From the IMG/VR virus record IMGVR_UViG_3300016476_000987: 64,000 nucleotides of DNA; one strand, given 5' to 3'. A model generated the notes under the pieces. That model made no database searches, had not been told where the DNA came from, and worked only from the letters and a program-made list of their open reading frames with translations. Below, in pieces: positions 3,379 to 59,939 of this stretch (position 1 is its first letter; every line of letters starts with the position of its first letter). The stretch comes from a virus. Its lineage: Duplodnaviria > Heunggongvirae > Uroviricota > Caudoviricetes. The position numbers and the translations under genes were made by a program.

Positions 3379-4221
3379 ATGTCAAACATTGATTTGATCA
3401 AACAGCGCCTTCAGAAATTGCAATCGAAAACCTCAGACAGCAGCTCTCAGGTTGATTACTCCAAGATCTTTTGGAAACCGAAGTTGGGAACACAGATTGT
3501 TCGTATTGTTCCCCGTAAAGAAAACAGGGATTACCCCTTTGTAGAAGTTTCCTTCCATCAGTACAATGTCTTCAAAAAGAGCGTCTATTGCCTGGATGTT
3601 TTCGGAGAAGAGGATCCGGTGCTTCAATATCGGAAAGAGTTGTACAACGAAGGTACTCCAGAAGCCAAAGATCTGGCTAAAAAGATCGCCCCCCGCACTA
3701 AGTATTTTGCACAAGTAGTAGTAAGAGGAGAAGAGGACATGGGGACTCGTCTCTGGGAATTTAACAAGACTACTTACGAAAAGCTTCTTAGCATTATGGC
3801 TAACGAAGACTTTGGTGATGTTACAGACATTATTGATGGTACTGATCTTACGATTGAAGGGTATAAGGATACTGTTGCAATCGGAAAAAAGAATGTAGAG
3901 TACATCGCTGTAAACGTCACTCCTAAAAGAAGGACCTCTCCTCTTTCGGAAAATGCAGAACAAGCTAAGTCTTTCCTTGAAAATCAAAACAACATTCTTG
4001 AAGTCTATAAGAAGTTTACTTATGACGAAATCAAGACTATGTTGAAGAACTATCTTGTTCCGAAAGAAGACTCCGCTGAAGAACCTGTCGCTTCTGTCTC
4101 CGTAGCTGCTCCTGCTAAAGCATCGGCTATCATGGATGACGAAGATGATGAGCCTCCATTTCCGGTAGTAAAGAAGCAGTCCACTGCTCAGAAGTTTAAC
4201 GATATTTTTGACGAAGAGTAA
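3379..4221 (+). CDS. single-stranded DNA-binding protein, T4 gp32-like, with acidic C-terminal tail
   Basis: N-terminal region (FWKPKLGTQIVRIVPRKENRDYPFVEVSFHQYNV) resembles gp32 ([21 protein letters not shown]...); C-terminus DDEDDEPPF...DIFDEE acidic tail; sits between replication genes. Confidence 0.6.
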   Translation: MSNIDLIKQRLQKLQSKTSDSSSQVDYSKIFWKPKLGTQIVRIVPRKENRDYPFVEVSFHQYNVFKKSVYCLDVFGEEDPVLQYRKELYNEGTPEAKDLAKKIAPRTKYFAQVVVRGEEDMGTRLWEFNKTTYEKLLSIMANEDFGDVTDIIDGTDLTIEGYKDTVAIGKKNVEYIAVNVTPKRRTSPLSENAEQAKSFLENQNNILEVYKKFTYDEIKTMLKNYLVPKEDSAEEPVASVSVAAPAKASAIMDDEDDEPPFPVVKKQSTAQKFNDIFDEE

Positions 4222-4232
4222 TCTCTAAACTT

Positions 4233-5336
4233 ATGGATGAAAAAAGAAGTGCAAAGAGCGGTCTAACAGCCGCTCTTTCTAAGAAGTCTAGTGCCTTTAG
4301 CCTAGATAATTTTAAGAAATCCAAAAACCTCACAGAAGGGTCTAAGTTTAAAAAGCAAGAGTGGATTCCTCTGTCTCCTGCTTTTAATTCTGCGATTGGA
4401 TTTCCAGGACTGCCTAAAGGACATATTACAGTAATTAGGGGCCATAGCGATACCGGTAAGACTACCGCTATGATTGAGACTGCAATCTCTGCTCAAAAAA
4501 TGGGCCTTCTTCCTGTATTCATTATTACAGAAATGAAATGGTCTTTTGAGCATGCCAAAGAAATGGGATTTGAAGTAGAAGCTATTCCGGATCCTGAGAC
4601 TGGAGAAGTTACCTACACTGGAGAGTTTCTCTACATAGACAGGTCTTCTTTGAATGTGATCGAAGATGTCTCTTCCTTTATCATTGATATTCTCAATGAA
4701 CAGAAAAAAGGAAACCTTCCTTACGATCTTGTATTCTTGTGGGACTCTGCCGGTTCTATCCCTTCTGCTCAATCAGTAGAAGCCAAGAAGAACAACGCTA
4801 TGTGGAATGCAGCAGCAATGTCTATTCAGTTTTCCAACTTTGTTAACCAGGAGTTTTCAATGTCTAGGAAGGCTAGTAGTCAATACACAAACACTTTCAT
4901 TGTCGTAAACAAGGTCAGAGTAGAATATCCGGTGTCAAATCCGATGGAGAAGCCTAAGCTTAGAAACAAAGGAGGCGATGTCATGTATTGGGATGCTACT
5001 CTTGTGATTACCTTCGGTAACATTACTAACTCTGGCGTGTCCAAAGTAGAGGCTACAAAGGATAAAAAGACGGTAGTGTTTGCCAAGAGGACTAAAGTTT
5101 CTGTTGATAAAAACCACATGACAGAATCAAATACCTCTTCTAGGATAGTTATGACAGCTCATGGCTTCATTGAAGACACTCCAACTGCTATTGAGAAGTA
5201 CAAAAAAGAGCATAGGCATGAGTGGCTTAAAGTTCTTGGAGAAGGAGACTTCGATGTGGTATTTGAGCCCGACATGCAGGAGGATATGAAACCCAGGTAC
5301 GAGAATGTTATTGATGATGAAATAGGAGATGAGTAA
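4233..5336 (+). CDS. RecA/UvsX-family recombinase
   Basis: FPGLPKGHITVIRGHSDTGKTT Walker A in RecA-like context; LVFLWDSAGS Walker B-like; position after SSB as in T4. Confidence 0.6.
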   Translation: MDEKRSAKSGLTAALSKKSSAFSLDNFKKSKNLTEGSKFKKQEWIPLSPAFNSAIGFPGLPKGHITVIRGHSDTGKTTAMIETAISAQKMGLLPVFIITEMKWSFEHAKEMGFEVEAIPDPETGEVTYTGEFLYIDRSSLNVIEDVSSFIIDILNEQKKGNLPYDLVFLWDSAGSIPSAQSVEAKKNNAMWNAAAMSIQFSNFVNQEFSMSRKASSQYTNTFIVVNKVRVEYPVSNPMEKPKLRNKGGDVMYWDATLVITFGNITNSGVSKVEATKDKKTVVFAKRTKVSVDKNHMTESNTSSRIVMTAHGFIEDTPTAIEKYKKEHRHEWLKVLGEGDFDVVFEPDMQEDMKPRYENVIDDEIGDE

Positions 5337-6372
5337 CAGACTATTGGACATATTCTCTAAAGTCCAAAAAACAGAGAGACCTGCTAACATCCATGCTAAT
5401 AGCAGAGTGTTGATTGTGGATGGAATGAACACATTCTTGCGCAGTTTTGCAGTTGTTAATAGACTTAACCTTTTGGGTCATGAAATTGGAGGGTTAGTAG
5501 GTTTCTTTAAGTCTGTAGGTTCTGCTATAAAAACTATTAACCCGACCCGTGTTATCCTCGTTTTTGACGGGGAGGCCGGGTCGGCTAATAGGCGGTATCT
5601 TTATCCTGAGTACAAAGGAAATAGGCAGCATAATAGAATAATGAACAAAGTTCTATATCAAGATAGAGCTGTTGAGGATGATTCTAAGTATGAGCAATTA
5701 GTTCGTTTGGTAGACTACTTAGAGTATCTTCCGCTGCTAACTATTTCTTTAGACAATTTAGAAGCTGATGACATTATAGGCAATCTAGCATCTTTATCCT
5801 ACAATGGATTTTCTGATAGTGAGACTTATATCATGTCTTCAGACAATGACTTCATGCAGCTAGTAAATGATCGGGTTAGAGTGTATAGCCCTATAAAGAA
5901 AAAGATATATCAAGTAGATCATGTCCTTTCTGATTTTGGCGTACACCCAAATAATTTTGTTATTTACAAAGCTTTGATTGGAGATACTTCAGATAATGTT
6001 CCTGGCGTACAAGGAATAGGAGAGAAAAATGCTCCTAAGTTGTTTGAGTTCCTTTCTCAAAGCGATAGAAAAGACTTGGATTATTTATTTGAAGTATGTG
6101 CTAACCCTCCTAAAAAGTCTGTGCTTTATGATAGAGTACTGAATGTAAACAAAAATGTTGATATTTTTTATAGGATCATGGACCTAGTAAATCCTAATAT
6201 TTCAGATGAGTACAAAGAACTAATTAAAACAAAGTTTTATGATCCAATCCCCGAATTTAAAAAGCATGAGTTCATAAAGTTGTATAATTATGATAGAATG
6301 GGAGATGCTATCCCTAATTTGGATAGCTGGTTAAATGTTTTTATACCTTTGAATAATTATAGGCAGTTATGA
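5329..6372 (+). CDS. 5'-3' exonuclease / flap endonuclease (T4 RNase H / Pol I 5' nuclease family)
   Basis: LIVDGMNTFLRSF, FDGEAGS, YKGNRQ, and helix-hairpin-helix motif IGDTSDNVPGVQGIGEKNAPKL. Confidence 0.85.
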   Translation: MSNRLLDIFSKVQKTERPANIHANSRVLIVDGMNTFLRSFAVVNRLNLLGHEIGGLVGFFKSVGSAIKTINPTRVILVFDGEAGSANRRYLYPEYKGNRQHNRIMNKVLYQDRAVEDDSKYEQLVRLVDYLEYLPLLTISLDNLEADDIIGNLASLSYNGFSDSETYIMSSDNDFMQLVNDRVRVYSPIKKKIYQVDHVLSDFGVHPNNFVIYKALIGDTSDNVPGVQGIGEKNAPKLFEFLSQSDRKDLDYLFEVCANPPKKSVLYDRVLNVNKNVDIFYRIMDLVNPNISDEYKELIKTKFYDPIPEFKKHEFIKLYNYDRMGDAIPNLDSWLNVFIPLNNYRQL

Positions 6373-7718
6373 CAGCAAATAAGCTAAATCAGTACGGTTA
6401 TTCTTTTCAGTTAAAAGTTCTCTATTCTCTACTAAACGACAAGCCCTTTCTTCAAAACATCTCAGATGTAATACAAGTAGAGTTTTTTGAGTCTCCGGCT
6501 CACAAATGGATTGTTACTACGATACTTGAATATTATTCCAAGTATCACACTTTCCCCACAATGGAAGTGGTTAAGATCGAAATGATGAAAGAACAGAACG
6601 AAGTTCTTCGTCTTTCGATTAAAGAGGAGCTAAAACACATATACACTACCGCTCACGATGAAATTGAGTACGTAAAAGAGGAGTTTTTTAATTTCTGTAA
6701 GAACCAAAGACTTAGGGATGCTCTTCTTACTTCCGTAGATCTTCTTAAAGGAGGAGAATACGAAGGTATCCGAAAGATCATTGATGAAGCTCTCAAAGCC
6801 GGTAATGATAAACAAATCGGACATGAGTATGAAAAAGATATTGAGTCTAGATTTAGAGAAGAAGAAGATAAAAAGATTCCTTTTCCTTGGAAGGCTTTTA
6901 ATGATGCTACCGATGGGGGAATTGGATCTGGTAATCTTATGCTTCTATTTGCTCCTCCTGGCATAGGAAAGTCCACAGTGGTTTGTAATATCGCTGCCCA
7001 TGTATTGAAAATTGGATATAAAGTAGTCTACTATACTTTGGAATTGGATGAAAGGTACGTAGGTAAAAAGATAGACTCTATTCTTACCGGTATTGATGTT
7101 AAAAACCTAAAGCATCACCGTAAAGAAGTAGAAAAAGCAGTAAAAGATCTTAAAGGCCGGATTGTAATCAAGGAGTACTCTCCTAATCGTGCTTCTCTTG
7201 ACACTATAGAATCTCACCTGAGGCAATTAGAGGCCAATAGCGACTTCGTTCCGGATATAGTTATCATTGACTACCCTGACCTTTTAAGGCCCAGGAAGAT
7301 AAGGAAAGCGACCATAGAAGAGATTGATGACATCTATGTGGATGTTAAAGGTCTTGCTAAAGACTTAAAGATTCCCGTAGTAGCACCTTCCCAGATTAAC
7401 AGGATGGGAGCAAGGGATGAAATCATCGAAGGAGATAAAGTAGCCGGTAGTTTTAGTAAGATGATGATTGCAGATCTCAGCATCTCTCTTTCTAGAAAAA
7501 GAAAAGACAAACTTAACGGTACCGGTCGATTTCACTTTATGAAATCCCGTCTTGGGCCCGATGGTATGACCTATGAGGCAAAGATTGATCTCAATAAAGG
7601 TTATATCGAAGTATCAGAGGAACTGTATGATGAAGCTTCAGGAGATTCAGATGGAGGGAATGGGGATTTTTCAGCTGATGAACTAGACAAATTGAAGAAC
7701 AAGTTTCTAAAAGGATAA
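6369..7718 (+). CDS. replicative DNA helicase, DnaB/gp41 family
   Basis: Walker A LLFAPPGIGKSTVV, Walker B IVIIDYPDLL, DnaB-like C-terminal RecA fold motifs (SQINR). Confidence 0.85.
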   Translation: MTANKLNQYGYSFQLKVLYSLLNDKPFLQNISDVIQVEFFESPAHKWIVTTILEYYSKYHTFPTMEVVKIEMMKEQNEVLRLSIKEELKHIYTTAHDEIEYVKEEFFNFCKNQRLRDALLTSVDLLKGGEYEGIRKIIDEALKAGNDKQIGHEYEKDIESRFREEEDKKIPFPWKAFNDATDGGIGSGNLMLLFAPPGIGKSTVVCNIAAHVLKIGYKVVYYTLELDERYVGKKIDSILTGIDVKNLKHHRKEVEKAVKDLKGRIVIKEYSPNRASLDTIESHLRQLEANSDFVPDIVIIDYPDLLRPRKIRKATIEEIDDIYVDVKGLAKDLKIPVVAPSQINRMGARDEIIEGDKVAGSFSKMMIADLSISLSRKRKDKLNGTGRFHFMKSRLGPDGMTYEAKIDLNKGYIEVSEELYDEASGDSDGGNGDFSADELDKLKNKFLKG

Positions 7719-14514: not shown

Positions 14515-15279
14515 ATGAATAATAACTACGTTGTTTACCAACATAGAAGATTAGATAATAATCAAATTTTTTATGTTGGACAAGGATTGTTAAGCAGAGC
14601 TTATCAAAATCAAGTGAACAGAAGAAACACTAATTGGATAAAAGTAGTCAAAGAAGCAGGAGGATTTATAGTAGATATATTAAAAGAAGGACTTAGTAAA
14701 GAGGAGTCTTTGATTATAGAATCTGAGTATATAAAAAAATATGGAACTATAAAACATAACACTGGAATTCTTGTAAATGAAAGACTGTCCGGGAGTAGAG
14801 GAGTAAAAAGTGGCTACACCCACTCTGAAGAAAAAAGAAAAGAGATAAGCGAAAAAACAAAAAAAGCCATGCAAAATCCGGAAACAAAAAAAAGATTAAT
14901 AGAAAGTCATTTAAAATATTGGGAAAATTCGGAAAATCATATAAAAGCTTCTATTTCTACTAAAGGAGTTCATGCTGGCAGTAAACACCCAATGTACGGT
15001 AAAACTCATTCGGAAGAGTCTAAAGATAAAATGTCAAAAGCTAAATTAGGAAAAAAAAGATCTTTAGAAGCAATTGAAAAATTAAAAAAAAGAATTCCTT
15101 GGAATAAAGGACTTAAAGGAGCATATAAACAAAAACAAGAGACTATAGAAAAAAGAAAAAATACTTTAAAAAATAGACCCTATACTCCTCAAAAAAAAGT
15201 AGAATGTCCTTATTGTAAATTAATAGGCGGTTTTACTAATATGAAAAGATATCACTTTGATAATTGCAAAAACAAATAA
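14515..15279 (+). CDS. GIY-YIG homing endonuclease with NUMOD3-like repeats and C-terminal zinc finger (I-TevI-like, free-standing)
   Basis: YVVYQH...IFYVGQG GIY-YIG core; repeated GKTHSEESKDKMSKA-type NUMOD3 motifs; CPYC...HFDNC. Confidence 0.85.
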   Translation: MNNNYVVYQHRRLDNNQIFYVGQGLLSRAYQNQVNRRNTNWIKVVKEAGGFIVDILKEGLSKEESLIIESEYIKKYGTIKHNTGILVNERLSGSRGVKSGYTHSEEKRKEISEKTKKAMQNPETKKRLIESHLKYWENSENHIKASISTKGVHAGSKHPMYGKTHSEESKDKMSKAKLGKKRSLEAIEKLKKRIPWNKGLKGAYKQKQETIEKRKNTLKNRPYTPQKKVECPYCKLIGGFTNMKRYHFDNCKNK

Positions 15280-15775
15280 ACAAAAGATAATGGTTATTAA
15301 AAAAAACACACATGCTCCGCTTAGGTTTCCTAAATTGCTTATTGGGGAAGTCCTTATTAGCGCTGTTGTAGAATTTACAGACTCTTGTAGGTACGATGTA
15401 GGAGAAGATCAACTAGATGTCAATAAACTATTTGGTATCGGATACTTCCCTACTCATCATACTAATAGCGTAAGATTTGGATGGAGATACGATAAAAATG
15501 TAGATAAGATAGAAATCTTAGCCTACTATTATTTAAATGGTGATAGGCATTTTGATACTCTGACTTGGGCAGATATTGGAGTTTCTTATAGATGCGTTAT
15601 CTTTATTGAGCCCAATAATCATACTTTGTGTATGGGTAAAAAAGATATAGGAAGTTTGTTTGAAGTAGAACATTCCGTTCCTGTTAAAAGAAAATCTGTA
15701 GGGTACCTTCTTAGGCCTTACTTTGGCGGAAACAAAAAAGCACCTCACAACATAGAAATTAAAATTGAGATATGA
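15257..15775 (+). CDS. hypothetical protein (start possibly at later ATG 15290 to avoid overlap with GIY-YIG gene)
   Basis: ORF only. Confidence 0.4.
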   Translation: MIIAKTNKQKIMVIKKNTHAPLRFPKLLIGEVLISAVVEFTDSCRYDVGEDQLDVNKLFGIGYFPTHHTNSVRFGWRYDKNVDKIEILAYYYLNGDRHFDTLTWADIGVSYRCVIFIEPNNHTLCMGKKDIGSLFEVEHSVPVKRKSVGYLLRPYFGGNKKAPHNIEIKIEI

Positions 15776-16068
15776 GAAAAGTAGTAGCATTACACGACAA
15801 AGTTGTTCTTAAAAAAATTGAAGACGAAGACAAAGTAGTAGGAGGGATTATCATTCCCGATACCGGTAAAGAAAAATCAAACTATTTTGAGGTAGTTGAT
15901 ATAGGCCCAGGAATGTACCATCCTCACGTAATTAAAGAATATTATCCTATGGAGACATGTGTAGGAGACGTTGTTATTGTCCCTAAAGCAGTAGTAACGC
16001 AGATAATTGTAGACGGGGATGAATATTATGTTTGTAGAGAAGTAGAAATTCTAGCAATAATTAAGTGA
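15772..16068 (+). CDS. groES: co-chaperonin GroES (Cpn10)
   Basis: LHDKVVLKKIEDEDKVVGGIIIPDTGKEK...VVDIGPG matches GroES pattern (PLGDRVLVKR..EKTAGGIVLPD...VVAVGPG). Confidence 0.85.
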   Translation: MRKVVALHDKVVLKKIEDEDKVVGGIIIPDTGKEKSNYFEVVDIGPGMYHPHVIKEYYPMETCVGDVVIVPKAVVTQIIVDGDEYYVCREVEILAIIK

Positions 16069-16075
16069 TATAGAT

Positions 16076-16285
16076 ATGGACAAACATTTTGCTGTATTAG
16101 TAGATGTTCCTACAAAAGGAGAAATGATGTTGTTTCTTGGTTACTATGAAGATAATAAAGAGCAAATGGATGAAAGATATGAAGAGGTATCTATGGATCT
16201 TCCATTAACTCCTATCCTTGATAAATTGAAATCACACAAGTATAAATTGTTTAAACAAAAAGAAATAAATAATGATCAAGACTGA
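16076..16285 (+). CDS. hypothetical small acidic protein between groES and groEL
   Basis: ORF only. Confidence 0.4.
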   Translation: MDKHFAVLVDVPTKGEMMLFLGYYEDNKEQMDERYEEVSMDLPLTPILDKLKSHKYKLFKQKEINNDQD

Positions 16286-17945
16286 ATTTGGAAATGAGCT
16301 AAAAAGTAAACTGCTCAGCGGTATTTGTAAATTGAATGATAGCGTATCCTCTACTCTCGGTCCTGGAGGTAGAAACGTTATTATCCGGGATGAGGATGGC
16401 AACATTAAAGTAACGAAAGACGGAGTTACTGTAGCCAGGGCTTTCTCTAAGCTTGAGGATGATATTGAAGACATCGGTGCTCAGATGATCCGTAAAGTGT
16501 CTGAGAAGTCTGCTGATAAAGCAGGAGACGGTACTACAACCTCTACTCTCCTGGCTACTGTAATGGTAGAAGAAGGAATCAAAGTTATCACTCAGGGATG
16601 TAATGCCGTAGAAGTTAAAAAGGGTATTGACATTGGAGTAAAAAAAGTAGTAAGCCTTCTTAAAGAACTCTCAAGAGAAATCTCTTCTGATGATCAAATC
16701 AAACAAGTAGCTACTATCTCTGCCAATAACGATGTTGAAGTAGGAAATCTTATTGCAACAGCGATTGATAAAGTAGGTACTGACGGTGTTGTAGCTATTG
16801 AAGAATCTAAGACTGGTGAGACTTCTCTGGAAGTTGTTGAGGGTATGATGTTTGATCGTGGGTACAAATCCCCTTATTTTGTCACCAATCAGAATACTAT
16901 GCAAGCCGTTCTGGAAAAGCCACTTGTATTTCTGTATGATGGCAAAATAATGAACTCTAGCCAAGCAGTACCAGTTCTACAAGCAGCTGCTATGGAAAAT
17001 AGGCCCCTTCTTATTGTTGCGGAAGAAATCGAAGGAGAAGCCCTGGCTCTTCTTGTAGTAAATAAAGCTAATCAAACGATTAAGGTCTGTGCAGTAAAAG
17101 CTCCAGACTTTGGAGATCGTAGGACTGCTATTCTGGAGGACATCGCTATTCTAACCGGTGGAACTGTCCTGTCTCCTAACAAAGGTCACAAGCTTGATAA
17201 AATGAAGCCGACCGAGTTCAAAGCACATTTCGGAGAAGCAAGGGTAGTTAATGTTACTTCTAAAGACACTACAATCGTAGATGGAAAAGGATCAGCAGAG
17301 GCTATTGAGCAAAGACTGAACGAGATTAAGACTCAAATTGATATTGCTAAGTCTAATTTTGAGATTGAGAAACTTCAAGAAAGGTTGTCTAAACTTACTG
17401 GAGGAGTAGCTATCGTTAACGTAGGAGGTCTTAGTGAAGTGGAAATGAAGGAAAAGAAAGATCGTGTAGAAGATGCTCTTTACGCTACCAAAGCTGCGTT
17501 GGATCAAGGTATTGTCCCAGGAGGAGGAATGGCCCTTGTTATGTGCTCTTATAGGCTTCTTAAAGAAGCTATTACTGAGAACTCAGATCAACAAATTGGA
17601 GTTAGTATTGTATATAAATCATTAGTAGCTCCATTCAGAAAGATTATGCAAAATGCAGGGATTGAAGATTATCATTCTATGCTTAGTGAAATTCGTGATC
17701 TTAGAGTCGAGCATGAAAAGAAGCATCCCGAAGATCCTATGTTTCTCTGGTATGGATACAATGTGAAACTTGGAAATTTTGTTAACATGTATAAGGAAGG
17801 GATTATAGATCCGACTAAAGTAACTAGGACCGCCATAGAGAACGCAGCTAGCGTAGCCGGTACAATCCTTACTACAGAATCAGTAATCTTCTCAGTAGGA
17901 GAAAAAAAGAAAGAAGAAATTGATTACAGCCAATTCATGCAATAA
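16272..17945 (+). CDS. groEL: chaperonin GroEL (Cpn60)
   Basis: [41 protein letters not shown]; 557 aa. Confidence 0.95.
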
Positions 17946-32651: not shown

Positions 32652-32772
32652 CTGATTCAGTTTGCCCGTGGTAACGACTTGTTATAAGAAATTATAATTG
32701 GTTTCTGTGATCAAAATCCAAGCAATGTCTCACTGTTGTTTGGGCTAAATGTGAGGAAAAAACGGGATGTTT

Positions 32773-32875
32773 AGTCAGGTGGCGGAGTGGGCTAACGCTA
32801 ACTAGGAAGAGTCTGAGGGGTGGTAGCCTAGTACCAATACCCTGATGACCACAGGTTCGAATCCTGTCCTGACTA
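32773..32875 (+). tRNA. atypical tRNA-like element (unit B, 103 nt): tRNA-Leu-like D arm GCGG-AGTGGGCTA-ACGC, stem CTAGG/CCTAG with 20-nt loop
   Basis: Same acceptor AGTCAGG/CCTGACT; T arm ACAGG-TTCGAAT-CCTGT. Confidence 0.4.
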
Positions 32876-33005
32876 CAATTGGTTGCAGGTTTTGGAAACA
32901 CTGCGTAATGTCAAGTATAAATCCAGCGGCTACACTTGGTCCAGTAGCAGAGGGTCTTGCCCCAATTATTTTTAATTCAGTCCTGGCTACTTAACAAGTA
33001 ATTAA

Positions 33006-33431
33006 ATGGAGATAACAAAATATAATATTTGTGAAACTATTGAGAACTATCTTAAAGAATTAAAAGTAAGGTATTCTATTCTTGATCCAGATTCTAAAGG
33101 TTGCGTCTATGAGCTTTTCAGTACATCAATGTCAGGACATATTCAAGTTGAATATAATCTTGATGATGAGAATGATAGTTATTTTGTTTTGCAGTTTTAT
33201 ACAGCAGTAGATAACCTCGGTTATTCAATATACCATCAGGAATGGGATAATGAATGTGAAAATTGTGATTCTGTAGAAGGTGAAATAGATAATTTATTAG
33301 AGTCTGTTAAAAAAATAAATCAAGGAATTTCAAAAATATCTACAAAGATTGAACAAATAAAAGATCTATGTGGTGAATATGGGTTAGACTTTGATAGTCT
33401 TATAACATTAAATTATGATTTTGATTCTTAA
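33006..33431 (+). CDS. hypothetical acidic protein inside tRNA island
   Basis: ORF only. Confidence 0.45.
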   Translation: MEITKYNICETIENYLKELKVRYSILDPDSKGCVYELFSTSMSGHIQVEYNLDDENDSYFVLQFYTAVDNLGYSIYHQEWDNECENCDSVEGEIDNLLESVKKINQGISKISTKIEQIKDLCGEYGLDFDSLITLNYDFDS

Positions 33432-33454
33432 TAAATCTACTAAAACAAACAGTT

Positions 33455-33727
33455 ATGAAATCAAATAAAGAATACAGATTTGCCGACAATCCAAAAGAAA
33501 AAGAGTTTCACGATAAATTCAAACAAATGTTTGAAATATCAAACACTACAAGAAATTCATTATCGGCAATTATCTTTGGTTGGAAAGATGCTTCACAAAA
33601 CTATCCAAATGTATATTTAACTGATAAAGAAGAAGATATTTGCCTAAATCTTATACAATGGCTTGGCAGTCCTGTCGGTCAATCATTTCTTAAAGAATGT
33701 GGTTTTGATAACAATGAAAACAAATAG
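33455..33727 (+). CDS. hypothetical protein
   Basis: ORF only. Confidence 0.4.
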   Translation: MKSNKEYRFADNPKEKEFHDKFKQMFEISNTTRNSLSAIIFGWKDASQNYPNVYLTDKEEDICLNLIQWLGSPVGQSFLKECGFDNNENK

Positions 33728-33729
33728 TT

Positions 33730-33936
33730 ATGGCAAACAAAGTATGGCACAAAGTAGTAATTGCAACAGAGGAACAGGATGTTACAGTTCGTCCTACTGA
33801 TGAAAACGATGGTATTATTTTAGAAACGAAAGAGCCAGATGGCACTGGAAGTCCCAGACTATATCTTAATAGAGATGAAATGGAGTTTCTTATCACTAAG
33901 ATGAGAGAGATGATGGATTATGTAACTTCTAAATAA
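33730..33936 (+). CDS. hypothetical protein
   Basis: ORF only. Confidence 0.4.
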   Translation: MANKVWHKVVIATEEQDVTVRPTDENDGIILETKEPDGTGSPRLYLNRDEMEFLITKMREMMDYVTSK

Positions 33937-33943
33937 AAAAACA

Positions 33944-34261
33944 ATGTTGTATCCAAGAGCTTATCATAAAGACGGCAGACATAGAAGACCAATTCCTCAA
34001 TGGGCTAAAATTGTAATAGGAATTATTCTAGTTTCTATATGGGTTTTTATTGGTATTGAGTCTATAGTAAGTCGTACTAAAAAAGTAAAAGTATATGGAA
34101 CGGTAGTAAGTCACCATATAACTAATGACAGGTCTGGAAATCCTACTTACTACACTATTATCAAAACAGATGATGGACAAATAATGACTAAGAAGGGTTT
34201 AAATTACTTTATAATTAAAGAGGATGATAGGGTAGTGATAGACGATTATGTATTTGAGTAA
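33944..34261 (+). CDS. hypothetical membrane protein (one TM helix)
   Basis: IVIGIILVSIWVFIGI hydrophobic segment. Confidence 0.45.
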   Translation: MLYPRAYHKDGRHRRPIPQWAKIVIGIILVSIWVFIGIESIVSRTKKVKVYGTVVSHHITNDRSGNPTYYTIIKTDDGQIMTKKGLNYFIIKEDDRVVIDDYVFE

Positions 34262-34327
34262 AAAAATTTTGTTCGTATTCTTAAGTGCCCTATCTTTGCC
34301 CTGGATCTTTGAAATAAGGGATTAGTT

Positions 34328-34413
34328 GCCCCGGTGATGGAACTGGTAGACATGAAGGACTTAAAATCCTTTTCGCCGAAAAGCGAGTACGGGTTCGACT
34401 CCCGTCTGGGGCA
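34328..34413 (+). tRNA. tRNA-Leu (anticodon TAA), type II
   Basis: Acceptor GCCCCGG/CTGGGGC, anticodon stem AAGGA/TCCTT loop CTTAAAA, variable hairpin TCGCCGAAAAGCGAG, T arm ACGGG-TTCGACT-CCCGT. Confidence 0.85.
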
Positions 34414-34419
34414 CAAAAT

Positions 34420-34529
34420 AGTCAGGTGGCGAAATTGGTTAGACGCTAAAAGCGGGTTCGTAACCCTTGACCGTCTGGTATCAGATGCTTAGAGTAACAC
34501 TCGTACAAGTTCGAATCTTGTCCTGACTG
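34420..34529 (+). tRNA. atypical tRNA-like element (unit C, 110 nt): Leu-like D arm GCGA-AATTGGTTAG-ACGC, expanded central region with small hairpins
   Basis: Acceptor AGTCAGG/CCTGACT, T arm ACAAG-TTCGAAT-CTTGT, discriminator G. Confidence 0.4.
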
Positions 34530-34558
34530 CAATTATTAAACAATAAAACAAATAAACA

Positions 34559-34810
34559 ATGAGACCAGACGAAATGAGAAACGAAATTGTAAGAGAAAAG
34601 GTAGAGTATAAACCCGATCCTAGTGACCTAAGAAAAAGACATCCAATTATTATTGAATTTCTTGATAGCGGGTGTATTGTTAGAGTAGGATGTAAATCAA
34701 TAGCATTTAATGATTATAGAAATGGAATGGAAGAAATAAATGCTTATGTAAAAGATCCTATTACTGCATATCAAAAGTGGGGTAAAGAATTAGGAATAGA
34801 ATTGTACTGA
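34559..34810 (+). CDS. hypothetical protein
   Basis: ORF only. Confidence 0.45.
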   Translation: MRPDEMRNEIVREKVEYKPDPSDLRKRHPIIIEFLDSGCIVRVGCKSIAFNDYRNGMEEINAYVKDPITAYQKWGKELGIELY

Positions 34811-34819
34811 TACAAGGTT

Positions 34820-34906
34820 AGTCAGGTGGCTGTAGGTATCAGCTTTAGGAGGTTGCATCTCTGTTATGTGTAATGCCTTCCACGGGTTCGAATCCTGTTC
34901 TGACTA
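34820..34906 (+). tRNA. atypical tRNA-like element (unit D, 87 nt), homologous to unit A (stem GGAGG/CCTTC, 23-nt loop containing GCATCTCTGTTATG)
   Basis: Acceptor AGTCAGG/TCTGACT (one GU), D arm GCTG-TAGGTAT-CAGC, T arm ACGGG-TTCGAAT-CCTGT. Confidence 0.4.
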
Positions 34907-35030
34907 CAAAAAAATAAAAGTAATGCAAAAAGAAGAAATCAAACTATGGATTGATAGATGGTCTAAATTAAAACCATCTCCGAAAAAAGATATGTTAATT
35001 AAGATTTGGTCTAGGTTTTTATAACAAATA

Positions 35031-35152
35031 GTCAGGTGGCGGAATGGTAGACGCAGAGGGGTCAACATCCTCGAAATAGGGAGTATAAAAAAGTTGAAAT
35101 ATAGGTACCGCACACTCCAGACATCGTACAAGTTCGAATCTTGTCCTGACTA
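35031..35152 (+). tRNA. atypical tRNA-Leu(CAA)-like element (unit E, 122 nt): normal anticodon arm GAGGG-GTCAACA-TCCTC but ~54-nt variable region
   Basis: Acceptor AGTCAGG/CCTGACT, D arm GCGG-AATGGTAG-ACGC identical to bacterial tRNA-Leu, T arm ACAAG-TTCGAAT-CTTGT. Confidence 0.45.
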
Positions 35153-35272
35153 CGAGGGGAAAGTAACCTAAAGAGAGCCTCAAATGGTGAATGTCTGTAG
35201 CTTATCTAAGCATAGCAGATTGTGACCGCCGGTAATGATCTCAGCAGGTGACACACGGGAGAGACCGTACAT

Positions 35273-35376
35273 AGTCAGGTGGCGATAATGGATATACGCA
35301 CCCTTAGTTCAGGGAGTATGGAAATATGAGGTAATGAATACCATACAATGTGCAAGTTCGAATCTTGCCCTGACCG
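35273..35376 (+). tRNA. atypical tRNA-like element (unit F, 104 nt); T stem GCAAG/CTTGC covaries relative to other units
   Basis: Acceptor AGTCAGG/CCTGACC, D arm GCGA-TAATGGATAT-ACGC, T loop TTCGAAT. Confidence 0.35.
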
Positions 35377-43671: not shown

Positions 43672-44400
43672 ATGAACCCTCCCCCTAAGTATCCATTACT
43701 ATCAGATGATACTATCAATATAGTGATATGTGAAGATCATATTCTATACAGGCAAGGAATAAAATACACTCTGGATCAAAAGAATAATATACAAATTATC
43801 GGAGAAGCCGATAACGGAGTGTCTTTATTAAATCTACTAAAGCATGTGACTCCTAACATTATTATCCTGGATATTAACATGCCGGTAATGGATGGGGTAG
43901 CTGTGCTACCGGAAATAAAAAGACTGTACCCGGCCATAAAAGTACTGGTCCTTACTATGAATAATACTCCGGAAATGATAGAGATCATGATGTCTAAAGG
44001 AGCTGACGGGTATCTCACAAAGAATGATGATCCGGAAGTTATCTATACGGCCATCTTAGATTGCCATAAAGAAGGAAAATACATAGATAAGAGAACCCAG
44101 GACGTACTTATAAACACTGTTAGGAGAGTAGGAGGAGATCCTATTATAGATATCCCTAATAAAACTACTCAGCCTGCTAGATTTGACACCCCTATACCAG
44201 ACAAAGAACCTTGGTATAAAATGCCAACCAGAGCTACTCTAGTAGGCCTAGGAATAGCTTTTGCTGTGTTTATAGGTCTATACGCATATGAGAAGCTTAG
44301 GGTCAGTAATAAGCCTGTAAAGACGGTACAAGCTCCTCCTAGTTATCCACAAGATTATAACAATAATCGATATGGACTAGATACCATATTCTCTAAATAA
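43672..44400 (+). CDS. response-regulator receiver (REC) domain protein with C-terminal TM helix, no DNA-binding output domain
   Basis: VICEDH (acidic pair), ILDINMPVMDG (phospho-acceptor Asp), VLVLTM (Thr), GADGYLTK (Lys); C-terminal TLVGLGIAFAVFIGLYAY. Confidence 0.75.
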   Translation: MNPPPKYPLLSDDTINIVICEDHILYRQGIKYTLDQKNNIQIIGEADNGVSLLNLLKHVTPNIIILDINMPVMDGVAVLPEIKRLYPAIKVLVLTMNNTPEMIEIMMSKGADGYLTKNDDPEVIYTAILDCHKEGKYIDKRTQDVLINTVRRVGGDPIIDIPNKTTQPARFDTPIPDKEPWYKMPTRATLVGLGIAFAVFIGLYAYEKLRVSNKPVKTVQAPPSYPQDYNNNRYGLDTIFSK

Positions 44401-52408: not shown

Positions 52409-52599
52409 TTCTTAAAGTTTTTATTGTAAAAATCGTTTACACCACAAATCAATGCTGTAAATCCTTGACTAAAACAAAACAAAGTAACAATATGTCCTCT
52501 ATCGATCCTAGTAGTAGGTTGTCCGTCAAAATAAACGTATTGCACCATCAAGCAAAAAATAATTGCCGATATAATATGAACAGTTAATCCCTTATTCAT
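52405..52599 (-). CDS. small membrane protein
   Basis: Hydrophobic, two predicted TM segments. Confidence 0.35.
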   Translation of the reverse strand: MNKGLTVHIISAIIFCLMVQYVYFDGQPTTRIDRGHIVTLFCFSQGFTALICGVNDFYNKNFKK

Positions 52600-52904
52600 T
52601 TCTTATAGTTTTTATTGTAATATTCTTTAGCGTTTGAGTAGTCAACCACGACCAGTCCATTTTTGCCAAGAGCGTGCCCATCTGTCCAAGCCATGCAGAT
52701 GTTCTGCTCTTCTCTTTGTTTGGCTTCGTTTTTTAATTTGTAGACCAATTCGGTTAGAGGTTTATTGTCACACAACAGTTTGTGATTTAATATATTATTG
52801 TGCGCTAACATCTCAAAGAACCATTCAACTGCGGTCATGTTATTCTTTTCCATAAGTGTCGTTGTAGTATTGTTTACCACTGCCATAATTCGGCTCATAC
52901 CCAT
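52596..52904 (-). CDS. small protein, MTAVEW / QYYNxxY paralog family member (start may be the internal MTAVEW Met)
   Basis: NMTAVEWFFEML, AKQREEQ, EYYNKNYKK. Confidence 0.5.
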   Translation of the reverse strand: MGMSRIMAVVNNTTTTLMEKNNMTAVEWFFEMLAHNNILNHKLLCDNKPLTELVYKLKNEAKQREEQNICMAWTDGHALGKNGLVVVDYSNAKEYYNKNYKK

Positions 52905-53136
52905 CTAATGTACCTTGTTCGTAGGCTTTTTCTATTTGTTTGTTCTCTATCTGTTTGGCTTGATTTATCAAGGCATCTAAAACTTCCCAATTTATCTCAC
53001 AAACCTGCGGGTTTCCATAATCTTCTAACTCTTTAGCTAACCATTCAACTGCTGTCATGTTAATGTTTTTTGTAATGTTTTTTAGTTCATACTCTTTCAA
53101 TAAAGCCATCATGTAATTCTCTGCTGATTGTAGCAT
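52840..53136 (-). CDS. small protein, MTAVEW / QYYNxxY paralog family member
   Basis: NMTAVEWLAKEL, QAKQIENKQ, KQYYNDTYGKE. Confidence 0.5.
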   Translation of the reverse strand: MLQSAENYMMALLKEYELKNITKNINMTAVEWLAKELEDYGNPQVCEINWEVLDALINQAKQIENKQIEKAYEQGTLDGYEPNYGSGKQYYNDTYGKE

Positions 53137-53150
53137 GTGTATGTGTGTTG

Positions 53151-53390
53151 TTATTTATCGAATGTTTCTTTGTAGTATTGTTCCCAAGACTCCCAGACAG
53201 GGGGCATACCGTCATCGAGTGATTGTCTTGATTGTTTAAATGTTTCTTCATGTTGCTCCTTCTCCATTTGTTTTGCCTGTTCAAATTCACCCCTTACTTT
53301 CATTAAATGATGCAAATCATGTGATGTACTTTCAATCCTTTCTATTAACCATTCAACTGCTGTCATGTTATTTTGTTCCATATGTTTCAT
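53151..53390 (-). CDS. small protein, MTAVEW / QYYNxxY paralog family member
   Basis: NMTAVEWLIERI, QAKQMEKEQ, EQYYKETFDK. Confidence 0.5.
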   Translation of the reverse strand: MKHMEQNNMTAVEWLIERIESTSHDLHHLMKVRGEFEQAKQMEKEQHEETFKQSRQSLDDGMPPVWESWEQYYKETFDK

Positions 53391-53882: not shown

Positions 53883-54116
53883 TTACATTTTTTCAATCTC
53901 TGCTTTTACTTGAGTCCAATATGTCCAACTTGTCTCATAATCAGTATTCATACTGGTAATGTTCCGAATAATTTCATTCACGGCTATCAACGCACACTTC
54001 TTTGTATACGGGTTAGTATAAACCGGTATATCATCCCCTCCGGTATAGTTTGTCAAATACGAGATAGATATGCCCATGGCATCGAACAACTCTATTGCCT
54101 TGTCTCTTGGTGTCAT
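53883..54116 (-). CDS. small protein, paralog of 59610..59837
   Basis: KAIELFDAMG...ALIAVNEIIRNITSMN...YWTQVKAEIEKM versus KAKELFDKYQ...ALIAVDEIINTLSMD...YWRQVKQEIEIL. Confidence 0.5.
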   Translation of the reverse strand: MTPRDKAIELFDAMGISISYLTNYTGGDDIPVYTNPYTKKCALIAVNEIIRNITSMNTDYETSWTYWTQVKAEIEKM

Positions 54117-58018: not shown

Positions 58019-58296
58019 ATATCAAGTTTTAAGTTTGAGATGTATTCATTTTTATCTCCATCGTATTTATTTTCTATGTTTACATTAAAGCAAAACACGC
58101 CTCCAGCATCAAAAGCCTTTTCAATCTCAGGAATTAATGGTGTTGATTGAGATAGGATTTGTTTTAAAGAATTGATTTTACCTAAGTATAAAATGTCGTA
58201 GAAATCATCTTTTAGCTCTAGTAACCTTTCTTTTTCCAACTCTTCTATTCTTTTTTGAATAGCTGTCTTATTGACAATTATGTACTCGTTATTCAT
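58015..58296 (-). CDS. hypothetical protein
   Basis: ORF only. Confidence 0.45.
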   Translation of the reverse strand: MNNEYIIVNKTAIQKRIEELEKERLLELKDDFYDILYLGKINSLKQILSQSTPLIPEIEKAFDAGGVFCFNVNIENKYDGDKNEYISNLKLDI

Positions 58297-58639
58297 TCTC
58301 TTTATTTATTTTGTCTAAGTCTTCTAAGTCTTCCTTCAATCTTCTTAAGAAACTATCGTCTCCATCATCACCACTCAATAACCAGTCAATCCTATGAGCA
58401 TATATCTCAGCCATACGAAGTATCTTTACTGCCTCTTTGAACTTCTCAATAACTTCATTGGGGTATTCGTAATGATATAACTCGTCTGGATACTTCTCAT
58501 ACCAATCCGGTAAATTCCAAGACTCTTCTTTTAGTTCTTCGGCAGTCTTCTTCCTACCATTCTTTTCTATATGATACTCTATATCATCAGCAATGTCCCC
58601 TATCTTGTATTGGTTATAGTCAAATCTTCCTCCCGACAT
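58289..58639 (-). CDS. hypothetical acidic protein
   Basis: ORF only. Confidence 0.45.
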   Translation of the reverse strand: MSGGRFDYNQYKIGDIADDIEYHIEKNGRKKTAEELKEESWNLPDWYEKYPDELYHYEYPNEVIEKFKEAVKILRMAEIYAHRIDWLLSGDDGDDSFLRRLKEDLEDLDKINKENE

Positions 58640-58653
58640 AGCAACCTCCTTTT

Positions 58654-58938
58654 TTAGTTATTTAATAATTTAGTATAAGTTTCGTTGTAGTATTGTTCGG
58701 CATCCTCAAACGCTTTTGTTGTGCATCCGTATGTTTTATTGTTCAAACATCTGTTGTGGACATGCGACATTATTATCTGCTCCTTCTCCATTTGTTTGGA
58801 TTTTTGAACCGTCTCTCTGATTTCATCCCACCTATGTAATGGTATTTCACCTATCAATTCCGTACTTAATTTTCTTACCAACCATTCTACTGCCGTTATA
58901 GATTTATCGGAATTTCCGATTTTTTTTTGCTGTGCCAT
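58654..58938 (-). CDS. small protein, MTAVEW / QYYNxxY family member with MAQQ start
   Basis: ITAVEWLVRKL, KSKQMEKEQ, EQYYNETYTK. Confidence 0.5.
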   Translation of the reverse strand: MAQQKKIGNSDKSITAVEWLVRKLSTELIGEIPLHRWDEIRETVQKSKQMEKEQIIMSHVHNRCLNNKTYGCTTKAFEDAEQYYNETYTKLLNN

Positions 58939-58953
58939 GTGTCAAATTTTAAT

Positions 58954-59145
58954 TTAATCTAAAAGGGGACATATCCAAATTGGGCAAATAATTAGCCAAC
59001 ACATAAACCTTTCTTGCAGGCTAACGGCTAAATTATCTTGACCAATTTCTCTGCAATCTTTTTTCCAAATAAAATAGAATGGGATAAAAAAAACAAATTG
59101 CAATGATATACATATTATATATGCTACTATTGTTTGCTGTGCCAT
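58954..59145 (-). CDS. small membrane protein with MAQQ start
   Basis: Hydrophobic; conserved start motif. Confidence 0.4.
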   Translation of the reverse strand: MAQQTIVAYIICISLQFVFFIPFYFIWKKDCREIGQDNLAVSLQERFMCWLIICPIWICPLLD

Positions 59146-59146
59146 G

Positions 59147-59386
59147 TTATTTGTTTAATATTTGATCTCTCATCCATTTAGCACCGTATAAAAAAGATAC
59201 TCTTTCCTTAGGCCAGTCTGAAAATCCAAAAGATTTTTCTTCTATCTCCTCATCACTTGGTAGTTTAACTGGTCTAACATATTCATCGATGTATTCCATA
59301 ATATGTTTAGCATCAATCATAGACACCTCGCATCTCTCCGCTGCATGTAAAAACATTTCTTTTGTGTATAGTTTTTGCTGTGCCAT
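59147..59386 (-). CDS. hypothetical protein with MAQQ start
   Basis: Conserved start motif. Confidence 0.45.
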   Translation of the reverse strand: MAQQKLYTKEMFLHAAERCEVSMIDAKHIMEYIDEYVRPVKLPSDEEIEEKSFGFSDWPKERVSFLYGAKWMRDQILNK

Positions 59387-59393
59387 GTGTTAT

Positions 59394-59606
59394 TTAATTT
59401 ATTGGTTCGTCAGGAAGTGTTGTCCAATGGGTTACATCATCTAAAAAATTTTCAGATGATTCACTATAAAATCCTTTAACATCATCGTAATATTCAGCCA
59501 CTAACCAACGACTGTTTTTTGGAAAACTTTTTGGTGCGTAAACTAAAAAACTTCCATGTTCAACGTTTGGTAATTTTTCTTTCACACTAAATATTTGTTG
59601 TGCCAT
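59394..59606 (-). CDS. hypothetical protein with MAQQ start
   Basis: Conserved start motif. Confidence 0.45.
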   Translation of the reverse strand: MAQQIFSVKEKLPNVEHGSFLVYAPKSFPKNSRWLVAEYYDDVKGFYSESSENFLDDVTHWTTLPDEPIN

Positions 59607-59609
59607 GTG

Positions 59610-59837
59610 TTACAATATTTCTATCTCTTGTTTAACTTGTCTCCAATAATCAATCAAATCCAATAGTATATTACCTCTCACATCCACATCTCTAATATCC
59701 ATACTTAGAGTGTTAATTATCTCATCCACAGCTATTAATGCATAATTTTTAGTTCTGTCAACATACCATTGACTTCCTGCAATTTGATACTTATCAAATA
59801 ACTCTTTTGCTTTTTCTTTAGGTGTTTGCTGTGCCAT
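59610..59837 (-). CDS. small protein with MAQQ start, paralog of 53883..54116
   Basis: See paralog. Confidence 0.5.
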   Translation of the reverse strand: MAQQTPKEKAKELFDKYQIAGSQWYVDRTKNYALIAVDEIINTLSMDIRDVDVRGNILLDLIDYWRQVKQEIEIL

Positions 59838-59903
59838 ATGTTTGTTTTTATCGCCTATTCATGGAATAATTTACAATTATCGCCTTAGAATATTACAGGT
59901 ATA

Positions 59904-59939
59904 AAACCGGACTCCATATAAAGTTATGAAGTCCGGTTT
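59904..59939 (-). terminator. rho-independent terminator for minus-strand gene 59953..60936 (AAACCGGACT / AGTCCGGTTT 10-bp stem, U-run on minus strand)
   Basis: Perfect 10-bp inverted repeat, 16-nt loop, followed on the minus strand by TTTTAT. Confidence 0.6.

Follow-up and report, generated by a model that had tools for sequence, protein, structure and literature searches.

The subject of this analysis is a short sequence, here called the head, that lies across the start codons of five consecutive small genes in a 64,000-nucleotide (nt) stretch of viral DNA (IMG/VR record IMGVR_UViG_3300016476_000987; Caudoviricetes). The whole of this stretch is referred to as the window. The five genes, g1 to g5, follow one another on the minus strand and are listed below, with protein lengths in amino acids (aa), together with the head copy that sits on each ATG and a relative of g1 from elsewhere in the window.

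59610-59837, minus strand: g1, 75 aa, phrog_21441 family, paralogue of 53883-54116
59825-59839, minus strand: head copy 1 (ATATGGCACAGCAAA; one mismatch), on the g1 ATG
59394-59606, minus strand: g2, 70 aa, DUF551 by domain match; the exact protein is found on 23 contigs
59594-59608, minus strand: head copy 2 (ACATGGCACAACAAA; one mismatch), on the g2 ATG, with the g1 TAA 3 nt upstream of that ATG
59147-59386, minus strand: g3, 79 aa, unannotated; MAQQKLYT and a ...LPSDEEI... segment in common with mosaic relatives in loci L014, L028, L039 and L147
59374-59388, minus strand: head copy 3 (exact), on the g3 ATG
58954-59145, minus strand: g4, 63 aa, putative membrane protein (hydrophobic, Cys-rich sequence only)
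59133-59147, minus strand: head copy 4 (exact), on the g4 ATG, with the g3 TAA 1 nt upstream
58654-58938, minus strand: g5, 94 aa, TAVEW-family protein predicted to form three helices (homologue search, AlphaFold model)
58926-58940, minus strand: head copy 5 (exact), on the g5 ATG
53883-54116, minus strand: g1 paralogue without AQQ, starting MTPRDKA

An earlier reading of the letters alone, hereafter the original prediction, had noticed a motif of about 19 nt at the starts of these genes and proposed a wider search for it. On the 64-kb window this search returned the five copies and none elsewhere: the 15-mer ACATGGCACAGCAAA, which encodes MAQQ, has five minus-strand matches at up to two mismatches against 0.08 expected from window shuffles, three of them exact and two with one mismatch each, and neither strand holds a further match at this threshold. 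The repeats form the largest non-tRNA direct-repeat family of the region, and all five are placed on the ATG of consecutive minus-strand open reading frames (ORFs; start codons at 59837, 59606, 59386, 59145 and 58938). The gene starts read (A)ACATGGCACA(G/A)CAAA. Invariant among the copies are an A at -2, ATGGCACA and CAAA, whereas the '(T)AAC' stretch is variable (TAACAC in g2 and g3, TGACAC in g5, ATAAC in g4, AAACAT in g1). The shared start is therefore real, but its length has to be corrected, since the looser upstream 'TAAC' part leaves a solid core of about 15 nt.

The five proteins have only MAQQ in common by blastp and are otherwise unrelated, as had been predicted. Two of the assignments made at that time, a paralogue of 53883 and a member of the MTAVEW family, also hold: g1 is 36% identical to the product of 53883-54116 (E 8e-9), which lacks AQQ, and g5 belongs to the TAVEW family. 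Two further proteins had been listed as unknowns; this stands for g3, whereas g2 is not truly unknown because it matches DUF551. Tandem duplication and divergence of one gene can be ruled out as the origin of the array, as the bodies are unrelated and relatives of g1 lack the head. The g4 ORF was not called as a gene in the Logan contig L027, though this contig is identical to the window. Look-ups of the exact g3 and g5 proteins returned no entry, and the homologue search with g5 gave an identical sequence (P0121).

The head is not confined to these five sites, as the original prediction had allowed it might be, but is conserved in related phages: MAQQTAVEW, in any codons, is carried by at least 120 stretches of uncultured viral contigs. 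When viral contigs were screened for pairs of heads spaced 195-225 nt apart, 18 others came up, 15 of which (L009-L015 and L018-L025) are phage-like with heads on small genes, while L008/L017 and L016 look unrelated. In the fetched loci the 12-mer ATGGCACARCAR has 177 distinct occurrences; 144 of them supply the first ATG to an ORF at least 30 aa long, and the context of the remainder is mostly the same. These loci hold 159 distinct MAQQ ORFs; a hidden Markov model assigns 117 to the TAVEW family, and the other 42 fall into 31 sequence clusters that include an HNH_3/NUMOD1 endonuclease and methyltransferase-like, zinc-finger-like and membrane proteins. In L018 at least seven differently coding head-bearing genes stand in a row. 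The TAVEW N-terminus is kept to a graded extent (MAQQ|, MAQQT|, MAQQTAV|, MAQQTAVE|), residue 5 is Thr in 18/31 of the non-TAVEW clusters, and one family, EFIPYEQALELKELGF, has three different head junctions. Graded retention, varied junctions and the threonine together suggest that bodies were repeatedly grafted in frame behind a start of the TAVEW type. The sequences show that the head was joined in frame to many unrelated small genes with its nucleotides held almost constant. The searchable literature yielded no account of MAQQ or TAVEW heads.

Homologues of g1 show the same from the side of the gene body. Among the best 120, 95 start with MT-P.EKA, 8 with MELT and 4 with MAQQT, and g1 itself (MAQQ-TPKEKAKELF) aligns with M-TPRDKAIELF in the window paralogue and with M-TPKEKALELY in the L002 orthologue. 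The head is an add-on to the gene bodies, because most g1 homologues, including these two, do without AQQ and because the head is disordered in the model of g5. This AlphaFold model has three helices with residues 1-6 disordered (predicted local distance difference test score, pLDDT, 80); a Foldseek search with it against the PDB gave nothing significant, the best hits being weak histone-fold matches (E > 1, TM < 0.45). The head of g5 comprises 14 aa (MAQQKKIGNSDKSI) and occurs on other TAVEW bodies too. At least three further paralogues of the g5 family lie at 52596-53390.

Several side observations concern this family and its starts. The QTAVEW...AKxMEKEQ...YYNETY family has hundreds of metagenomic members with several paralogues per phage; its fold prediction is three helices (short, long, short), and no Pfam or PHROG annotation was found for TAVEW proteins. 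The long head of the g5 type, MAQ(Q/E)(K/R/S)KIGNSDKS(I/M/P), sits on otherwise differing TAVEW bodies in P0121, P0182, P0189, P0190, P0199 and P0233, so that heads of unequal length appear to be exchanged. In L010 (~7052-7076) a decayed head, caaataaactATAgcacaag, has its ATG changed to ATA, and the downstream gene now starts at an ATG 4 bases past it. On the minus strand of L039, a g3-like ORF (MAQQKLYTEFEV...) reads without a stop and in frame into a second head (...IELPS-MAQQTAVEW...), so that two cassettes are fused as one ORF. The window also holds start-straddling repeats other than MAQQ at adjacent gene pairs (41199-41221/41464-41486, 57481-57506/58012-58037 and 52404-52437/52595-52628); at one such pair, a 23-nt repeat of 100% identity (AAAAATAAAATTATGAACCAAAT) stands at the start of an 86-aa gene and again at that of thymidylate synthase. 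These pairs suggest that gene insertion in this phage generally duplicates the start region already in place.

The conservation sits at the level of the nucleic acid and straddles the ATG, in agreement with the original prediction. At codon 2, where any Ala codon would be allowed, GCA is found in 103/103 MAQQTAVEW starts and 138/138 MAQQ ORF starts, compared to 41% of Ala codons in the gene bodies of the loci and 80% (135/169) at codon 2 of their other MA- genes. The sequence ATGGCACA does not vary between lineages that share just ~70% identity in their other genes, nor between TAVEW paralogues at 30-50% protein identity. Around this core, lineages have their own forms, ATAAC-ATGGCACAACAG, ATAAACT-ATGGCACAACAA and ACAC-ATGGCACAGCAA, the last being that of the window, and each form, with its synonymous and spacer variants, is common to unrelated genes of one genome. 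Head variants are accordingly more alike within a locus than after shuffling (mean 4.09 against 5.71 mismatches; 0/2000 shuffles reach the observed value). Equivalent junctions also hold versions that are similar in nucleotides and yet non-synonymous, namely MSQE, MAQE, MTQQ and MAQK. Synonymous diversity of the MAQQTAVEW starts grows away from the ATG, as the following counts of non-majority codons show.

Codon 3, Gln: 5/103
Codon 4, Gln: 26/103
Codon 5, Thr: 29/103
Codon 6, Ala: 20/103

Upstream of the ATG, the heads are richer in adenine at particular positions than the other genes of the same loci.

A at -3: heads 89% (92/103), other genes 48%
A at -11: heads 91% (94/103), other genes 64%
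A at -12: heads 83% (86/103), other genes 64%
A at -13: heads 68% (70/103), other genes 53%

An A at -6 is present in 59/103 heads. Adenines at -3, -6, -12 and -13 promote initiation in F. johnsoniae (PMC6847099), and the head family fits this Shine-Dalgarno-independent pattern of the Bacteroidia. Directly 3' of the start codon follows the CA-rich G-CACA-R-CAA-ACA. In 57% of head genes, versus 13% of others, just 1-3 nt separate the ATG from the stop of the gene before it, and overlapping junctions make up 1% of head genes versus 38% of other genes. As close stops are common and overlaps almost absent, the unit can be described as a clean module of stop, spacer, start and four codons.

Cassettes carrying these heads were found amid different neighbours. 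With 100% identity over 4168 nt, the contig L027 and the window represent one and the same phage. The g2 cassette occurs in at least three neighbour contexts other than that of the window (L026/L034/L035; L028-L031 with L033; L032; 10 loci fetched). Its similarity to the window, ~93-95%, is limited to 59611/59620 through 59358/59381, that is from -5..-14 of its own ATG to +6..+28 of the next. Within this span the synonymous site at +9 (CAA/CAG) segregates with the upstream neighbour and not with the body of g2, which places the crossovers inside or just past the head. The g1 cassette is present at 99.2-99.6% identity over 244 nt in L147 and L148. In L147 the order is window leader, an extra 45-aa MAQK gene, g1 and a g3-like gene, with no g2; in L148 it is a 45-aa MAQQ gene, g1 and an 80-aa MTQQ gene. 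Counting the window, g1 has three different genes downstream and differing genes upstream. A 54-nt block at 59132-59185 takes in the last part of g3 and the g4 head; junctions in L028, L030, L031 and L033 match it at 98% identity, and the gene that follows the junction is an HNH_3 endonuclease in L028 (Pfam) and in L031.

A census of breakpoints over all fetched loci, based on blocks at least 88% identical and at least 120 nt long, gave 1083 block ends. Of these, 18.8% fall within 30 nt of a head, a zone that takes up 1.4% of the sequence (13-fold enrichment); for other gene starts the corresponding shares are 45% and 11%. Per start, this amounts to 1.10 block ends at heads and 0.33 at other gene starts. 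Neighbour contexts, homology ends inside heads and block ends all speak for the recombination module boundary that had been listed among the candidate roles. They show that single-gene cassettes between two heads are swapped among phage genomes, with crossovers inside or just beyond the heads.

In regard to the host, the window has ~34% G+C, its genes lack Shine-Dalgarno sequences and their upstream regions are A-rich. The host probably belongs to the Bacteroidota, and likely to the Flavobacteriia, since the context of the start sites fits the phylum (PMC6847099) and TAVEW genes occur in the Flavobacterium 'elemo' phages. When a 53-nt query of head plus TAVEW was used, only the TAVEW part matched these phages, in which the gene starts MNTAVEW. 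We found no cultured phage with close DNA similarity, a tblastn search with a MAQQTAVEW protein gave no match, and a prophage search of 185,579 species genomes for the exact MAQQTAVEW pattern gave 0 matches.

We hold with moderate confidence that the head is a portable stop-start junction, combining a Shine-Dalgarno-independent initiation context of the Bacteroidia type with a short homology linker for cassette exchange. Its layout can be written as ...A-rich / TAA / 1-3 nt / ATG GCA CAR CAR (ACA)..., and it is commonest on small QTAVEW-family genes of a large uncultured phage group. Exchange would take place by homologous recombination over 15-30 nt of common sequence when phages co-infect a cell, with the UvsX/gp32-type proteins of the phage itself as the agents, and could also occur between copies within one genome. 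A role in translation initiation or coupling in a host without Shine-Dalgarno use is plausible: the head would be retained as a ready-made initiation region for any body behind it on a Bacteroidia ribosome, by virtue of adenines at -3 and -11 to -13, an A/C-rich coding start and an invariant A at +6, and the non-overlapping stop 1-3 nt upstream would allow re-initiation. The five-gene array would then stem from repeated cassette insertion into one slot. ACA motifs raise translation in enterobacteria (PMC3879156), and CA repeats after the start codon are reported to raise it in E. coli (Martin-Farmer & Janssen 1999, cited in PMC9031893). In E. coli, few features of the coding sequence affect initiation as strongly as codon 2 and the accessibility of +6, and a U at -1 is also favourable (PMC10018350).

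Several points weigh against this reading. The window's own five copies fit the Bacteroidia pattern only partly, as the base at -3 is C instead of the favoured A in 4/5. The predicted minimum free energy of -20..+22, about -2 kcal/mol, does not differ between heads and other genes (p 0.4), which speaks against less structure at head starts than elsewhere; in predicted foldings all gene starts are weakly structured. Generic initiation preferences favour second codons of the AAA type and cannot account for the exact GCACARCAR, and descent with frequent conversion could keep GCACARCAR without any function. It is uncertain whether TAVEW genes were the source of the head; of the 120 closest homologues of g5, 18/120 start with MAQQ and 18/120 with MKQ, and MEQQ, MSKQ and others also occur. 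The loci of the breakpoint census were picked for containing heads and their sequences are mutually related. Finally, metagenome assemblies could in principle join contigs at repeats. Assembly chimeras are nevertheless unlikely: cassettes present in more than one context have diverged as alleles, usual assembly k-mers exceed the heads in length, and the same arrangements were seen in several runs.

The main rival, a minority possibility, is that the head is a passive scar, formed by illegitimate in-frame fusion of new genes behind a resident TAVEW-type start, functionless, recent and homogenised by gene conversion. The graded junctions and the add-on character of the head agree with such an origin, as do the lineage-specific variants, the start-straddling repeats other than MAQQ at other adjacent gene pairs (D9, D10 and D12) and the structural likeness of head starts to other starts. 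However, GCA in 138/138 starts and the invariance of ATGGCACA across lineages and TAVEW paralogues would need selection or very frequent conversion, and the host-type initiation context is stronger at heads than at other genes.

It is quite unlikely that the head is an mRNA operator or cleavage site for a dedicated factor such as a RegA-like repressor, an RNase or a small RNA, with the accessory genes forming one post-transcriptional regulon. The motif does overlap the AUG of many early-type small genes, like the operators of T4 RegA, its core GGCACA contains G and C that A-rich initiation preferences leave unexplained, and genome-specific variants could mean co-evolution with a binding factor. 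Yet the 64 kb hold no complementary copy at up to two mismatches, which rules out an antisense copy or small-RNA partner in the window at this threshold, and no RegA-like or RNA-binding family was found by Pfam among 20 larger proteins of the window, which covers about one third of a genome no smaller than 184 kb. The head has no Rfam match, and the A/C-rich heads contain neither an inverted repeat nor a stem-loop, the sole hairpin being the terminator upstream of the array; the RNA-processing site that the original prediction had also considered is thus not borne out.

We regard it as very unlikely that a site-specific enzyme, be it a homing endonuclease or an integron-like recombinase, recognises the head and inserts cassettes there. 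The arrays look like cassette arrays, and HNH endonuclease genes lie in or beside several of them, one bearing a head itself. The array of the window is without HNH genes, though, and no integrase was seen among the scanned proteins; moreover, crossovers are spread from -14 to +28 and not fixed at one position, and neither an inverted repeat nor an attC-like hairpin is present in the head.

Hardly credible, finally, is a protein-level N-terminal tag (Met removal, stability, targeting) with DNA identity arising from codon bias: every copy is in frame with the same four residues, and GCA and CAA are the commonest Ala and Gln codons in these genomes, but codon 2 lacks synonymous variation (138/138 where 41% or 80% GCA is expected), conservation extends through the untranslated spacer and the upstream stop codon, the look-alikes MSQE, MTQQ, MAQK and MAQE at the same junctions are non-synonymous, most g1 and TAVEW homologues do without the tag, and the head is disordered in the model.

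Around the array and elsewhere in the window, the following features bear on transcription and recombination.

59904-59939, minus strand: intrinsic-terminator-like hairpin after the DUF932 gene and upstream of the array, -22.3 kcal/mol, z -5.95, then UUUUAU
59840-59890, minus strand: leader before head copy 1, with two exact AGGCGATAA boxes at 59848-59856 and 59877-59885
3379-4221, plus strand: gp32-like single-stranded DNA-binding protein (protein scan)
4233-5336, plus strand: RecA/UvsX-like protein (protein scan)
5329-6372, plus strand: 5'-3' exonuclease (protein scan)

The hairpin agrees with the terminator described in the original prediction, whereas the likely promoter placed upstream of the first copy could not be established: a Bacteroidia-type TAnnTTTG promoter was not found on the minus strand of the leader at 59838-59903, and sigma-70-type matches in the region are not commoner than in shuffles. 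Conservation in L147 reaches 94% over 59823-59890, made up of the leader and the opening 15 nt of g1; in that contig the stretch stands before the extra 45-aa MAQK gene. The two AGGCGATAA boxes, 29 nt apart between the terminator and the first head, occur nowhere else in the window as exact copies and may form a regulatory site. The gene right after the array (58289-58639, MSGGRFDY...) has a strong Shine-Dalgarno sequence (AAAAAGGAGGTTGCT-ATG; 58640-58660, minus strand) in front of its ATG at 58639. The rest of the genome is without such sequences, and ribosomes of the presumed host type ignore them; the L010 homologue of this gene lacks it, and another gene, in L014, has AAGGAGG (L014 ~3715-3735).

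The window further encodes a DNA polymerase, ribonucleotide reductase, GroEL/GroES (15772-17945), thymidylate synthase and a DnaB-like protein, and side observations include a NUMOD3 homing-endonuclease-like gene adjoining the DNA polymerase (14515-15279) and a protein with a response-regulator receiver domain (43672-44400). The exact g5 protein is also present on a 183,965-nt contig (P0121), from which the above estimates of the genome size and of the share of the window derive. ARAGORN calls four tRNAs in the window (Leu twice, Met and Arg), three of which are also called by Rfam, and none for Ala or Gln that would account for the head codons. Five copies of TAGTCAGGTGGC open tRNA-like stretches at 32772-35283, some of which end with GGTTCGAATCC and a complementary acceptor; these stretches are called as tRNAs neither by ARAGORN nor by the Rfam model.

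The modular theory of phage evolution foresaw short linkers at gene borders, and clear, widely reused examples are few. One linker that heads members of ~30 unrelated gene families across over 100 contigs of uncultured phages, with near-identical single-gene cassettes caught amid different neighbours, offers a test case for this theory. Because the linker enters the coding sequence and the hosts do without Shine-Dalgarno pairing, the head is also a natural and compact candidate for a portable translation-initiation module for Bacteroidia, whose initiation rules are still being worked out and for which expression tools are limited. The head could furthermore serve as a sequence tag to find hypervariable accessory-gene arrays in metagenomic phage contigs, the genes of which likely act in host takeover or anti-defence, and it calls for caution in gene calling and in the homology-based clustering of N-termini. 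A bolder idea, which we consider unlikely, is an accessory-gene platform in which a stop-start head of ~15-27 nt is both translation signal and recombination unit. Any ORF gaining a head would become a self-sufficient cassette hopping among the phages of the group, a homologous-recombination analogue of the integron for hosts that ignore Shine-Dalgarno sequences, and a specific factor might read the head and co-regulate the set.

Among known systems, the initiation regions of Bacteroidia are Shine-Dalgarno-independent and Kozak-like (Baez et al. 2019, PMC6847099). The heads resemble them in the absence of a Shine-Dalgarno sequence and in the adenines at -3 and -11 to -13, and represent a stronger version of the context of other genes. 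They differ in that the determinants known from Bacteroidia comprise single upstream adenines and low structure, the latter more marked in well-translated genes, with no conserved downstream codons described, and the copies of the window mostly have C at -3. With the CA-repeat and ACA enhancers the head shares an A/C-rich sequence at or right after the start codon (GCACAACAAACA). These enhancers were shown in E. coli and Salmonella, in synthetic or single-gene settings, and are neither mobile nor common to several genes.

The RegA operators of T4 are a loosely conserved sequence that overlaps the AUG of many early mRNAs in a phage that has the regA gene. In contrast, the head is conserved almost perfectly, and the available part of the genome (20 window proteins, Pfam) yielded no RegA homologue. 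Integrons likewise hold arrays of promoterless single-gene cassettes split by a repeated site, but the head has no attC hairpin, no integrase was seen and crossovers range from -14 to +28, so the exchange looks homologous rather than site-specific.

Promoter-early stem-loops (PeSLs) are mobile regulatory cassettes of T4-type phages (Arbiol et al. 2010, PMC2839356; PMC4122927), and the original prediction had compared the motif with them. The comparison holds for behaviour. Both are short conserved repeats between small non-essential genes of a hyperplastic region, recombination from copy to copy inserts, deletes or replaces single genes, as the contexts of g1 and g2 and the enrichment of block ends indicate for the head, and T4-like recombination proteins are present in the phage. 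It fails for anatomy, since the motif holds neither promoter nor stem-loop: PeSLs are intergenic units of promoter and terminator, whereas the heads are without a strong sigma-70-like promoter, a Bacteroidia -7 box or a hairpin. The head is instead translational and includes the upstream stop and the first four or five codons, leaving the peptide scar MAQQ. The host type also differs, being Bacteroidia for the head and Proteobacteria for PeSLs.

PeSLs and the conserved boundary or linker sequences postulated by the modular theory are the two systems nearest to the head in behaviour; such linkers are reportedly described for lambdoid phages by Susskind & Botstein 1978, Botstein 1980, Juhala et al. 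2000 and Clark et al. 2001. As with these linkers, short homology lies at both borders of exchangeable gene modules, and mosaic joints fall at gene borders, as in the g1 and g2 cassettes. However, lambdoid linkers are rare and specific to gene pairs, whereas the head is reused for dozens of unrelated genes and extends into the coding region.

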